Virus record (IMG/VR): IMGVR_UViG_3300000956_000002
Coordinates: 16,253 to 80,252 of that record
Origin: a virus
Strand: one strand, 5' to 3'
DNA length: 64,000 nt
Shown here: positions 22,807 to 43,900 of the stretch, piece after piece
How positions within the stretch are numbered: position 1 is the stretch's first letter
How the letters are laid out: each line of letters opens with the position of its first letter
Translations under genes and position numbers: made by a program
The notes under the pieces: model-generated
The model's database searches: none
What the model was told of the DNA's origin: nothing
The model's input: the letters and a program-made list of their open reading frames with translations, nothing else

Positions 22807-23529
22807 TTACGGAAACTTCTGGTCATGGGTTTTGGGGTTGGGTGCCTGAAAGAATTCTGAATGCAGTTGCAGCCACGATTGGAACTTGTCCATTTCCTGA
22901 TGCCGTAAGGCGGTCCAGTCGATTGGCCACCCCATCAACCATTCGCTCAACTGTGGGTTCTGCTTTCGACCCACATACGTTCCACGGCGTAAGGCTTTCT
23001 TCCTGGCGTTGGAACCGCCGCAATTGTCCCGGTCGCTCGCCCGCGGGGTAGGCCAAGACGAACAATCGTCGTCGCACATGTGGAGCACCAACGGAACATG
23101 CTGAAAACACTCCCCATCGCGCATCCATCCCCATTCCGGCAATGTCAGCAAGGACTCGGTTGAGTCCTCGAATAGCAAGGTCTGACGAGTTTTCAATGAA
23201 CGCGAATCGTGGTCGAACTTCGCGAATGATCCGCGCGAACTCTCCCCACAATCCTGAACGTTCACCTTCGATTCCGACACGGCATCCAGCCGGGCTGATA
23301 TCCTGGCATGGAAATCCGCCGCAAACGATATCAACGCCGCGCCATGGCTTTCCGTCAAAGGTTCGAACGTCGTCCCAAATCGGGAACCATGGCAGGATTC
23401 CGTCTCGCTGGCGTTGGAGGAGGATTTGGCGGCAGTAAGGTTCAATTTCGACCGCACAAACAGTTCGATGCCCGAGAAGCATTCCGCCGAGGATTCCACC
23501 GCCGCATCCTGCAAATAGGTGTAACTCAT
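22807..23529 (-). CDS. Overlapping alternative-frame ORF, probable MTase beta subunit
   Basis: ATG overlaps the upstream TGA (ATGA); C-terminal WPTPRASD..NPQLSEWLMGWPIDWT is motif-IX-like. Confidence 0.65.
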   Translation of the reverse strand: MSYTYLQDAAVESSAECFSGIELFVRSKLNLTAAKSSSNASETESCHGSRFGTTFEPLTESHGAALISFAADFHARISARLDAVSESKVNVQDCGESSRGSFAKFDHDSRSLKTRQTLLFEDSTESLLTLPEWGWMRDGECFQHVPLVLHMCDDDCSSWPTPRASDRDNCGGSNARKKALRRGTYVGRKQNPQLSEWLMGWPIDWTALRHQEMDKFQSWLQLHSEFFQAPNPKTHDQKFP

Positions 23530-23533
23530 TCAC
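22823..23533 (-). CDS. DNA cytosine-5 methyltransferase, alpha-type subunit
   Basis: LFAGCGG (I), GFPCQD (IV), ENS (VI), RRRLF (VIII), GNGQV (X); very short variable region; GTG start. Confidence 0.9.
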   Translation of the reverse strand: MNELHLFAGCGGGILGGMLLGHRTVCAVEIEPYCRQILLQRQRDGILPWFPIWDDVRTFDGKPWRGVDIVCGGFPCQDISPAGCRVGIEGERSGLWGEFARIIREVRPRFAFIENSSDLAIRGLNRVLADIAGMGMDARWGVFSACSVGAPHVRRRLFVLAYPAGERPGQLRRFQRQEESLTPWNVCGSKAEPTVERMVDGVANRLDRLTASGNGQVPIVAATAFRILSGTQPQNP

Positions 23534-23999
23534 CCCGCTCCTCCCTGACGCACTGTTCGTAGGCGGCGCCGAAGATTTGGGCGGATTCAACGCCGTTGGT
23601 TTCATTGTCGAGATTGGTGATCGTTATCACGGCGCCTTCCTGGCCTTCTGGCACGTCGATGATTTCAAAACTCCCCCTTTTGATGTGCTTCGAGGAATCG
23701 TTTGCGGGCAGCAATGAGGCAATCCAAGATTGTGGTGTATCCGTTATCCCCATCGCTACGGCCGTCCGATACGCGGAGTGCAACTGCGACTCCAAAGATC
23801 GAATTGCCGCGTTTAGCCACGCCTTTGTGTCGTCGTTTTGGAGGATGTATCGCTGGCCGTTTTTCCTCATGCCGATCTTCTTGTCGTTTTTCTTCGACGG
23901 GACTCGGCCCAGGTTGCGGATGTGAAGAACCAGCGGCTCCGAGGTTTCGCTGGATAAACGACTCACTGGCGTTTGGGAATTTGGCGAGGATGGATTCAC
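23526..23999 (-). CDS. RusA-like resolvase, frame A
   Basis: RVPSKKN N-terminal motif and NDSSKHI..GAVITI C-terminal motif. Confidence 0.5.
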   Translation of the reverse strand: MNPSSPNSQTPVSRLSSETSEPLVLHIRNLGRVPSKKNDKKIGMRKNGQRYILQNDDTKAWLNAAIRSLESQLHSAYRTAVAMGITDTPQSWIASLLPANDSSKHIKRGSFEIIDVPEGQEGAVITITNLDNETNGVESAQIFGAAYEQCVREERGE

Positions 24000-24006
24000 G
24001 AGTCAT
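23665..24006 (-). CDS. Overlapping ORF carrying a RusA-like catalytic motif, frame B
   Basis: ATGA-coupled start (MTRESIL); RSDGDNGYTTILDCL resembles DxDNxxKxxxDxL. Confidence 0.45.
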   Translation of the reverse strand: MTRESILAKFPNASESFIQRNLGAAGSSHPQPGPSPVEEKRQEDRHEEKRPAIHPPKRRHKGVAKRGNSIFGVAVALRVSDGRSDGDNGYTTILDCLIAARKRFLEAHQKGEF

Positions 24007-40900: not shown

Positions 40901-43900
40901 GAGAGGGTGTCGCCGACGTTGTAGCCGCCCTGTTGACGTTGCCATGAGGCGGCGAGTTCCTGGCCAACCCGTTGCTGATAGATGCGGTTGGCTTCAACGA
41001 TGGAGCGGCCGCGGAGATTGTTCCACGTCAGTCCATGGCTTTTCATGGCCGCCCGCTGAGTCATCGGCAGCGTGTGGACGGCGCGTTCGAACCAATCCCG
41101 CGACCATTTGTGCATCTGATCGGCGCGATTCAAGACCGACCGAGCCTGGCCGACGAGGCGCGAACCGGACTTCGAGATGGCGGATCCGATAATGGAATAC
41201 GCCTGTCCCCACAACGGCGACTGGTTTTCGGGCATGATGTGCTGGAGCCCGCCGTAGTAGTTTTTGAGCAGTTCGAGGTTGTGCGCGTGATAACGGCGGG
41301 TGGGATCGTCTGCGTTCTGCGGGTTGGCCAGCCAGTTTTCGAGGAAGCCGATGGCCTTGCGTTGTTCATCCCAGCGTTGGCGGAGATGGACGACGTTGCC
41401 GTCGAGGACTTCGTGGCCGATGCCGATGGTGGCGCCGGACATGGGCAGCGGCGGGGCGCCGTTCACGCCGGGGACGACCGGGAGGGTGATGGTAGAACCC
41501 GCGTCGTCGGCGCTGCGGAGGGCTTTGCCGGGCTCAGGACTGCCGCCCCATGAGGTTTGATCGTTGAGGATTTCCTTCCGGAGCGCCTGGAATTGAGGAT
41601 CGGCTTTGATCCTGGCGGCGATTCCGCCGGCATCGACGGCTGCCAACAGGGGTTCGAGTTCGGACAACATCTCTTCTTCGAGTTCTTTGAAGGCGAACTC
41701 GGCGGACATGGCGTTGCGGACCTTACGTTCGCGATCGCGCATCGCCCGGCGGACAGTGGCCACCGGGTCTTTCGAGAAGTCGTCGGCCAACTTTTTGGCC
41801 ATGCCGTTGAGTTGCGCGCGCAAGCCGGTTTGCTTGGCGAGATTGGCAGCTTGGATTCTGGCCGCGAGCTTCGGTGACTTGGCGAGGATGTAACTGGCCC
41901 ACTTGAGGAGATTCTGATTGTTGAGCGGTTGGCCGGTGGAACGTTTGATGTCCTTGTAAATTTCGAGGATGGATCGTCCGCCGCCTTGGCCGGTGAATAG
42001 CGCGTTCTGCCCCTCGGGTGTTGACGACAGGGCCGTCACCATGTCGTTGAGCGTTTGTTCCATGGCGACGGTGGATTCGCTGGCCTCGCGGATGCCGCGG
42101 AGTTCGCCCTGCAACACCGCCATGTCGCGATCGGTCTTGGCTTCCTGCTTTAGCGCCGCGGTCGCTTCTTTGATGGCAGAGTCGAACACCGCTTTGGAAT
42201 TCGTGAGGATGGCCTGCGCGGCTTGATTCTGCGCCGCCTTGGCTTGCACGCGGGCGATGAAATCCTGGAAATGGCGCGAGGTCAGTTTCTTGAACGCCTT
42301 CGAACTGTCGTCGAGAACCTGCTGGAGAATTTCTTCGAACCGCAGGATGGATTGGCCACCTTCGCCGGCAAGGCGCGCGCGACGATATGGGTCGTTGGCC
42401 AGCCGGGCTTTCATCTGTTGGTAGGTTTCGCGACCTTGAGGATTCAGTTGCTCGCCGATGTCGCGAATGCCTTTCCAGTTGCGGTAATCGAAAGCGTTTT
42501 GGACCTTCGGATCGGCGGTGTTGACGCCGAATTGATCGAGGATGTTCGTCACGTCGGCAGCCTGGGCGAGTTGCGATTCGCCTTCGATCTGCTGCTCCAT
42601 GGCGGACGACGCGAGGTTGGCGGCGTTGATCGCCTCGTTGGCATCGGTGACGAATGTGCCGCGTTCAATCGCGCGCTCAAACGCCGGTTGCGCATCATAC
42701 TTCTGGCGTCCTTCGAGGATGTCGCGGTAAACGCGTTCGCTGGCCGTCGGGTCTTTGAGTAAACCTTTGAGCCCTTTCCATAATTGCGCGAACCATTGTT
42801 TGATGCGGTTGATGATGCCGGGTGAGCGTTGTTCGAGAGTTTCCTGAGCCAGTCGATCGCCGAAAATCTTGGCAGCGTACTCGTCGAGGTTGATGAACGG
42901 GTAGAGGTCCATCGACCAGCCGGGCTCTCTGACGCGGAATTGGAATTCAACGCTGCTGAGTTTTCCGTCGCGGATTTCTTGAGGCGCGTTCGCCGGCATT
43001 TTGGCCAGGCGTTCAGCTTCGAGCGCGGCGCGGTCAGCTTCTGGCAATGATTGAATGAGGATGTGAAAGATTTCGTGCGCCGCAGCATCGGGCTTTGCTC
43101 CTTCAGCCAATCGCACGAGGCTTCCCAGCATACCGCCTTTGAGCATCACTTGCCCTTGGAACCCACCGCCAATGTAACGACGGAGTTCGAGAGTAAGCGG
43201 ACCGGAGTTCAATCCGCTGGCCTGAAAGATTTCGTGCGCTCGGAGAAGGACTTTCTTCGTCTGCGGACTCAAGGCGGAGGCATTGACGAGAGTCGGGATG
43301 TTGGCATCGGTTGCTCTGCCGATTGCCACCGATGGGCCTTGCGGCGGTGGAGTATTGACAGGTTCTGTGACGAGAGTACCTTGGCTTCCTTCCGCCTTCA
43401 GGGGAGCCGTTTGGGGCGTCGATCCTCGGGGTGACGGAGCAGCAGCACCAAACTGTTGGCTGTTGCCGTTTGCTCTCCGCATTGTTCCCTTGTCGATATT
43501 CAACACCTGTTCGGAAGTGAGCGTCTGCGTTCCAAACTTCGGGCCGTCATCGATCGTCACCGACTGCAACATTGTCTCATCATCGGGACGCGTCTTGACG
43601 TTCGTGACTGTGAAGCGCTCGCCTTGAATCTTGAACTTATCGCCGACGGAGAGTTCATCGCTGACAATCGGCTTGGTGTTCTTGCGCTCCTTCGCGGCGA
43701 CGGTTTGGAATTTGGCATCCTGAGTGGCCTGCTTTACTTCGGAATAGAAAGCCTCGCGGTCGGACTTCCGTTTCTTCGGCGCCTCGATGATTTGATTGAG
43801 CAGCGTTTCAGGATCGATCGGGCGACCAGTGTTTTGCTCAACGCCTTGCGCGGCCACGTCTGGAGCCGATGCGGTTGGACTATCGACGAACAATTTGGGC

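Follow-up and report, generated by a model that had tools for sequence, protein, structure and literature searches.

How a small enzyme could be encoded by two reading frames of the same DNA, with its fold divided between them, is the question raised by a 480-bp locus on the minus strand of a viral contig of 80 kb (IMG/VR record IMGVR_UViG_3300000956_000002; GC content 0.54). The window analyzed here is a stretch of 64,000 nucleotides of this contig (positions 16,253 to 80,252 of the record), and the locus comprises two open reading frames (ORFs) that overlap by 335 nt on the same strand: ORF A (23999-23526; 157 aa, GTG start at 23999, TGA at 23528-23526) and ORF B (24006-23665; 113 aa, ATG start at 24006), which lies in the -1 frame relative to A. 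The original prediction, made from the sequence of the window, had described a RusA-like resolvase that appeared split between these ORFs, with VPSKKN and NDSSKHI...VITI in A and DGDNGYTTILDCL in B, and had offered two interpretations, a resolvase of two chains or a programmed frameshift near 23700-23730. Both ORFs lie where it had placed them and carry these motifs in these frames. We put at roughly two in three the probability that the locus encodes a RusA-type Holliday-junction resolvase as two polypeptides, made from overlapping frames of one mRNA and assembled together. Window coordinates given below refer to the minus strand.

Division of the RusA fold between two frames

RusA (E. coli DLP12 / phage 82; PF05866; PHROG 34; PDB 1q8r, 2h8c, 2h8e), characterized by Mg-dependent cleavage of Holliday junctions as a dimer, is a single polypeptide of ~120 aa, and the locus has the same order of elements, namely β1, the P-S-x-x-N loop, α1, β2, D-x-D-N, α2, the DD motif and β3-β4; here, however, these elements are divided A-B-A over the two overlapping ORFs. 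The link between the two arrangements is provided by an unsplit, single-frame gene in another viral record (L031:3998-4378, plus strand; IMGVR_UViG_3300008255_000036), which encodes a RusA-like protein of 126 aa that matches PHROG 34, "RusA-like Holliday junction resolvase", with E 3e-19. The N-terminal third of this protein is 38% identical to chain A, and its 61 homologues, many of which carry PF05866, give a profile that matches E. coli RusA (1q8r) with E 6e-4. The unsplit gene likely pictures the ancestral layout.

Comparison of the family profiles with hhalign gave two complementary matches to the unsplit family. The frame-A family aligns with a probability of 98.2% (E 3.5e-14) over template positions 4-56 and 88-132, leaving the gap between them unaligned, and the frame-B family aligns with a probability of 94.7% (E 6e-8) over template positions 56-90 only. 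In terms of the fold, frame A matches only β1-PSKKN-α1 and DD-β3-β4, and frame B only β2-DxDN-α2; the B ORFs of relatives also touch phrog_34 weakly (E 0.015-0.03, profile positions 128-160). No single polypeptide of the locus carries β1-α1-β2-α2-β3-β4, and profile homology over the whole RusA fold is reached only by both frames together. The observation behind the original prediction, that neither frame holds the full set of RusA motifs, thus stands, and is true of the whole family.

By alignment, the putative active site is also divided between the chains. The catalytic aspartates D70, D72 and D91 of RusA correspond to D85 and D87 of chain B (within SDGDN) and to D101 of chain A; B D85 and A D101 are invariant, and the second aspartate is present in most relatives. 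The other invariant residues are S80, D81 and D95 in chain B and G119, E121 and G122 in chain A, with K37 and N38 of chain A also among the residues that stay invariant.

The chains were modeled individually with AlphaFold2. Chain A is predicted confidently over residues 21-76 and 111-130 and poorly over 81-100, and chain B confidently over 1-24 and 90-109 and poorly over 25-70; the strand that B contributes to the fold is not formed in the model of chain B alone. No solved fold resembles the frame-A model convincingly (best Foldseek E 0.28; best VIA-align Z 3.6). For a model of this kind, the failure to retrieve RusA is what would be expected of an incomplete fold, and it provides no evidence of a new one.

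Selection in both frames across homologous loci

This genome is rich in long alternative open frames: there are dozens of same-strand examples of at least 240 nt, up to 939 nt, and the 335-nt overlap of A and B ranks only ~31st on its strand. Two open frames are therefore uninformative alone; they were dropped as evidence in themselves, and the case rests on comparative evidence. The longest examples on the minus strand include 41726-42664, within a gene for a protein of 2811 aa (939, 594, 594 and 570 nt, and more), and another, of 627 nt, lies inside a 767-aa gene; genome-wide, stops in the -1 frame occur at 0.74 of the number expected from synonymous shuffling.

An exhaustive HMMER search retrieved 194 cluster representatives of the frame-A family at E<=1e-3, most of them proteins of 100-170 aa that align in a single stretch over A residues ~20-130; the best, P0002, is 59% identical over its full length. 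They contain no Pfam domains apart from an occasional C-terminal helix-turn-helix (HTH) fusion, as in P0007 (225 aa), a chain-A homologue with a Cro/C1-type HTH (PF01381, E 8e-9). Several long proteins (P0005, P0008, P0009 and others, up to 2782 aa) contain 5-12 repeated stretches that match chain A residues ~57-104, a likeness to the α1 region that is probably due to repeats or low complexity. B-type ORFs, too, have been called as proteins elsewhere, in 64 clusters of public data, every one of them unnamed or "hypothetical". At the level of DNA, tblastn of ORFs A and B against a phage GenBank collection gave no match and single-protein searches of viral and metagenome contigs found no locus; alignment-based searches did find loci, and 31 viral loci were fetched in this way. 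The codon alignment built from them contains 28 sequences, and the non-redundant family set contains 27 members, the window and 26 fetched loci.

The layout, with the same frame relations, recurs in ~28 independently assembled viral and metagenomic contigs at 29-62% protein identity. The B frame is open in 26 of the 27 non-redundant members; in nearly all fetched loci the -1 frame has 0-3 stops across most of the gene, compared with 4-14 in the +1 frame, and the few -1-frame stops that do occur sit together at the 3' end. In the homologues, an ATG no more than ~40 nt from the start of A usually opens the -1 ORF, the translation of which is strongly conserved and contains the block F-x-V-S-V-x-I-L-V-S-D-R-R-R-R-D-L-D-G-A-L-x-T-I-x-D-C-L-V-x-A-R-R, which is the RusA β2, D-x-D and α2 signature. 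B is also kept within the sublineage of the window: in a soil metagenome locus (L112), A is 62% identical, and B, of 114 aa, shares the S-D-G-R-S-D-G-D-N-G core with the window and stops at the equivalent position; in the catalytic segment of B, the differences between L112 and the window are mostly synonymous in B. A single homologue, L006 (L006:3925-4318, plus strand; IMGVR_UViG_3300030060_004561), has stops in the B frame, two in number, upstream of an intact β2-α2; it lacks the N-terminal motif of B and has an in-frame ATG, made by the conserved K-W-M of A, 10 codons before β2.

Stop codons were then counted against synonymous-codon shuffles. Over the whole gene there are 39 stops in the -1 frame against 86 expected and 210 in the +1 frame against 204 expected, and the genes that flank the locus in these records, 173 in all, show no depletion, with an observed-to-expected ratio of 0.97. 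Segment by segment (the segments are defined below), the A-selected segment contains 2 B-frame stops, both in L006, against 19 expected from within-segment synonymous shuffling and 61 expected from the codon usage of the loci, and the B-selected segment contains no A-frame stops against 22 expected, an absence with a joint probability of ~1e-12 for independent loci. Shared ancestry does not account for the lack of stops, as most pairs of sequences are close to saturation at fourfold-degenerate sites (median identity 0.36). The continuity of both ORFs is kept by selection, and the homologues retain two open frames rather than one.

The frame under selection was read from the position of the wobble. 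Codon-usage frame scoring on the window alone had given a noisy hint of a B-A-B-A pattern, and was replaced by a test of wobble phase across homologues. In the 28-sequence codon alignment, variability is highest at A position 3 over columns 50-108 and again over columns 133-167; over columns 109-127 the maximum moves to A position 2, equivalent to B position 3 (0.22, 1.95 and 0.22 bits in column 111; 0.44, 1.79 and 0.00 bits in column 117). At the N-terminal motif of B, wobble is again at B position 3. Purifying selection thus acts by segment, on B at the extreme 5' end, on A over β1-α1, on B over β2-α2 and then on A.

These segments can be placed on the window. Chain B begins with a two-helix module (MTRESILAKFPNASESFIQRNLG; 23935-24006) with wobble at B codon position 3 and a predicted local distance difference test (pLDDT) score of 94 over residues 1-24; in relatives this module takes either a window-like form (M...PNASE.FI.RN), of which the PNASE element is common to L003 and L015, or a MPxWTxxELxxY form. 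The first frame-A-selected segment (23778-23933; A residues ~23-74) covers β1, VPSKKN, a hairpin and α1, and here pLDDT is 86-96 for chain A and 53-56 for chain B, which reads the same stretch as a low-confidence linker. The frame-B-selected segment (23704-23805; B residues ~68-101) covers β2, SDGRSDGDNG and α2, that is, the part with the catalytic D-x-D of RusA, and its bases are read in chain A as a low-confidence linker (residues 81-100, pLDDT 51-53). In the second frame-A-selected segment (VPEGQEGAVITI; 23607-23711), which covers LPANDSS (the DD motif of RusA), β3 and β4, wobble is back at A position 3 from column 133 and pLDDT is 88-90. Chain A therefore runs through β1, the PSKKN loop, α1, an unconstrained linker, the PANDSS acidic motif, β3-β4 and a C-terminal helix, and chain B through its N-terminal two-helix module, an unconstrained linker, β2, SDG-RSDGDNG, α2 and a short tail. 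In the models of both chains, predicted confidence follows the selected segments. The C-terminal helix of chain A (23538-23603; residues 133-154, pLDDT 80-86) is extra to RusA, as is the N-terminal helical module of B; the helix belongs to this sublineage, being common to P0002, P0006 and P0039 and absent in most relatives.

Two chains, one frameshifted chain or separate roles

In the arrangement that we favor, ribosomes coming from the upstream gene would start at ATG 24006 to give chain B or at GTG 23999 to give chain A. Chain A would supply β1, the PSKKN loop and α1 and, beyond a linker of filler, β3-β4 together with the DD-type acidic residue; chain B would supply its N-terminal helical module and, after a filler linker of its own, β2, the D-x-D-N catalytic motif and α2, the filler of each chain being the out-of-frame reading of the functional segment of the other. 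The chains would then associate, with the strand and helix of B filling the gap in the sheet of A, to form a composite RusA fold with an active site that spans both chains (D85 and D87 of B, D101 of A). The complex of A and B would presumably dimerize and resolve branched DNA in phage replication and packaging. Translation of both chains, their assembly and their nuclease activity are what we infer; what the analysis shows is the homology of the two frames to complementary parts of RusA, purifying selection that changes frame along the gene, and selection that keeps both ORFs uninterrupted.

The arrangement of the starts fits such a scheme. A strongly hydrophobic 34-aa ORF (MNTIKNILAILCLVILALPVVAFAWFVLLKFLHR; 24107-24003) lies between the SSB gene and the resolvase locus, and the ATG of B overlaps its TGA (24005-24003) as ATGA; the GTG of A lies 7 nt past the ATG of B and 4 nt after this TGA. 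The stop of the 34-aa ORF is likely the coupling point that feeds both resolvase starts. In the majority of loci, the stop codon of the upstream gene is overlapped or closely approached by one start, and the second start is no more than a few dozen bases away (usually ~20 nt), an arrangement that suggests coupled re-initiation into both frames. Chain B, moreover, starts at a conserved ATG of its own, and the wobble in its N-terminal motif is in the B phase.

A design of this kind has been proven by experiment in another enzyme. M.EcoHK31I is a C5 DNA methyltransferase of two polypeptides (Lee, Kam and Shaw 1995, via PMC2836561, PMC3404938), the beta chain of which is encoded inside the alpha gene in another frame (PMC2836561); alpha carries motifs I-VIII together with X, beta carries motif IX, and both chains are needed, although the first 42 residues of beta are dispensable (PMC2836561; PMC3404938). 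Both M.EcoHK31I and the resolvase locus have a nested second ORF on the same strand, in another frame and with its own start, and in both the motifs are split in an interleaved manner. M.EcoHK31I belongs to another enzyme family and is a much larger protein; in the resolvase, only a single small domain is divided, its catalytic D-x-D core lies on the nested chain, and the ORFs are almost co-extensive. The requirement for both polypeptides, established for M.EcoHK31I, would here be indicated by evolutionary evidence, in that both ORFs are kept open. By analogy, the proven design raises our confidence in a resolvase of two chains.

Read along the DNA, the elements (A, B, A) follow one another as they do in native RusA, and this is also what would be seen if a double programmed ribosomal frameshift produced a single-chain RusA, with translation beginning in A, moving -1 into B before β2 and returning +1 after α2; a variant with an additional, initial B-to-A shift after the N-terminal motif of B is possible. 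The retention of the B-frame catalytic segment in L006, despite stops in the upstream linker of B, can be read in the same way. However, neither junction has an X XXY YYZ heptamer or a conserved +1 site in the 27 non-redundant members, no unusual RNA fold follows the junctions in the window sequence (z -0.03 and +1.40 against shuffles), and the window contains no tRNA genes that would hint at special decoding; the frameshift once proposed near 23700-23730 is the less well supported of the two original options. Frameshifting would also not require the frames to be open outside their own segments, yet both are kept open. The geometry of the junctions is a further difficulty. The end of α1 in A (E-S-Q-L) shares codons with the start of β2 in B (F-x-V-S-V), and the end of α2 in B (D-C-L-V-A-A-R-R) shares codons with L-L-P-x-D-D of A; variation at these shared codons is synonymous in A and conservative in B. 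From the α1 tryptophan to the DD motif there are ~40 codons here, compared with 55 residues in the unsplit L031 protein (W38 to D93). Since the elements share nucleotides, a product made in one pass would be ~15 residues too short between α1 and the DD motif and would lack the connecting loops. We know of no precedent for two or three efficient shifts within 130 codons, and consider this route unlikely. The two-chain interpretation in the original prediction, by comparison, gains support from the selected continuity of both ORFs, the start that B possesses and this same overlap of elements.

Selection on both ORFs would also be expected if both were translated for separate roles, for example a DNA-binding or structural role for A and that of a small regulator for B, with RusA ancestry merely historical, and the additions specific to the family (the N-terminal module of B, the C-terminal helix of A and the HTH fusion of P0007) could be seen in that light. 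We regard this as rather unlikely: the invariant residues are the catalytic and structural ones of RusA, split between the chains (S80, D81, D85 and D95 in B; K37, N38 and D101 in A), the sheet is incomplete in either chain by itself, no fold is matched by the model of frame A and the strand of B is unformed when B is modeled alone. From the protein homologues, ~190 of which are full-length and called as genes, frame A had seemed sufficient as the entire functional protein, with the RusA-like motif of frame B a coincidence of the overlapping code, but the DNA of the homologues reversed that view. The middle segment is most variable at A position 2, so that the residues of A are unconserved there and those of B conserved, and the B profile matches RusA β2-α2 at E 6e-8; this explanation retains very little probability. 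Even less is left for an artefact or decay, in which a pair of assembly indels or a pseudogenized RusA would have left two frames open by chance. Long alternative open frames are indeed common in this genome, but the same layout is present in the ~28 independent contigs at considerable protein divergence, with frame-specific purifying selection and stop depletion; conservation of the layout across independent assemblies rules out an assembly error or a pseudogene. Artefact and coincidence are effectively excluded, and the weight that remains beyond two chains, a frameshift and separate roles goes to explanations that we have not named.

Several observations weigh against a RusA-type resolvase made of two chains. 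Neither ORF of the window matches Pfam PF05866 at E<=1, and the A and B ORFs of the homologues do not match it at E<=10; by the same token, neither frame, together with the lack of a known fold for the frame-A model, presents itself as a complete RusA. The equivalent of RusA Lys76 is not conserved in chain B, where the position is occupied by G, A, S or T, and in the unsplit relatives a lysine stands elsewhere in the motif (N-K). The B chain of L006 would have to start at the internal ATG, or frame B would have to be entered by some other route, although by analogy with the beta chain of M.EcoHK31I the layout of L006 would fit a dispensable B N-terminus. The 28 loci are phylogenetically not fully independent.

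Related systems and the neighboring genes

In the literature searched, no RusA-type resolvase was described as divided over two overlapping frames. The division here is interleaved, A-B-A, and differs from a simple split into a front and a back half. The earlier statement that no precedent had been described holds in this sense for RusA and fails for the principle, which is known from M.EcoHK31I (PMC2836561). Two other leads were rejected: a "RusA/RuvC" frameshift mention in PRFect (PMC10885494) goes back to a 1991 ruvC paper and describes another matter, and the "two polypeptides" of an Alteromonas podovirus concern a virion RNA polymerase, not RusA. The locus resembles overprinted phage and virus genes (PMC8227390) in that two proteins are encoded by one stretch of DNA under mutual codon constraint; in overprinting, however, the second protein typically arises de novo and is unrelated, whereas in this locus parts of a single ancestral fold are found in each frame, the remainder of which is filler. 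It resembles programmed ribosomal frameshifting, as in the tail assembly chaperone G/GT (PMC5009743), in that conserved information lies in two frames, and differs from it in having no slippery site or stimulatory structure, in frames that each have a start and stay open over their whole length, and in the 2-3 shifts that would be needed.

The evidence leans towards a broader proposition, namely that a small RusA-fold nuclease has been re-encoded as interleaved chains with a cross-chain active site, selected in >100 phage lineages, and that the splitting of folds recurs in phage DNA-metabolism genes. If this is true, fold-splitting by frame overlap would not be a one-off curiosity of M.EcoHK31I, and the resolvase would be a second enzyme family, after methyltransferases of the M.EcoHK31I type, in which an interior catalytic segment comes from a chain in another frame. 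Gene callers give just one of the two ORFs, as hypothetical, and the resolvase family is therefore invisible to annotation; other enzymes may be invisible likewise. The locus raises the questions of how a gene in one frame comes to have such a layout, how initiation is balanced between two starts with so few bases between them and whether assembly is co-translational on one mRNA, and it is a clean example from nature on which methods for the detection of dual coding can be tried.

The resolvase locus lies within a recombination and replication module. This module begins with an ATPase-like gene (26985-25684), followed by a DUF2800 / PD-(D/E)XK nuclease (25709-24576) and SSB (24575-24111); a position in a phage replication and recombination module, beside SSB and a PD-(D/E)XK nuclease, is itself a point of likeness to RusA. 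Directly downstream of the resolvase is a C5 DNA methyltransferase in two frames (23533-22807), and after it a zinc-ribbon protein (22608-22027). The methyltransferase alpha frame (GTG 23533 to 22823) carries motifs I-VIII as well as X and matches PHROG 363, and the beta frame, which is +1 (ATG 23529 to 22807), carries WPTP...EWLMGWPIDWT, the motif IX region, and matches PHROG 1008; the alpha GTG is 4 nt upstream of the beta ATG, which is overlapped by the stop of ORF A. This gene (22807-23533) has the layout of M.EcoHK31I. In 51 homologous viral loci there are 3 internal stops in the beta frame against 191 expected, compared with 566 against 512 in the +2 frame, and wobble phase passes from alpha (motifs I-VIII) to beta (WPTP..., EWLMGWPxxWT) and back to alpha (motif X), which is the architecture of the resolvase on a larger scale. 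At another locus (L002:2900-3650, plus strand), a methyltransferase lies directly upstream of a split RusA gene and shows the same alpha/beta/alpha pattern, with PCQ and GNAIVP in one frame and WPTP in another.

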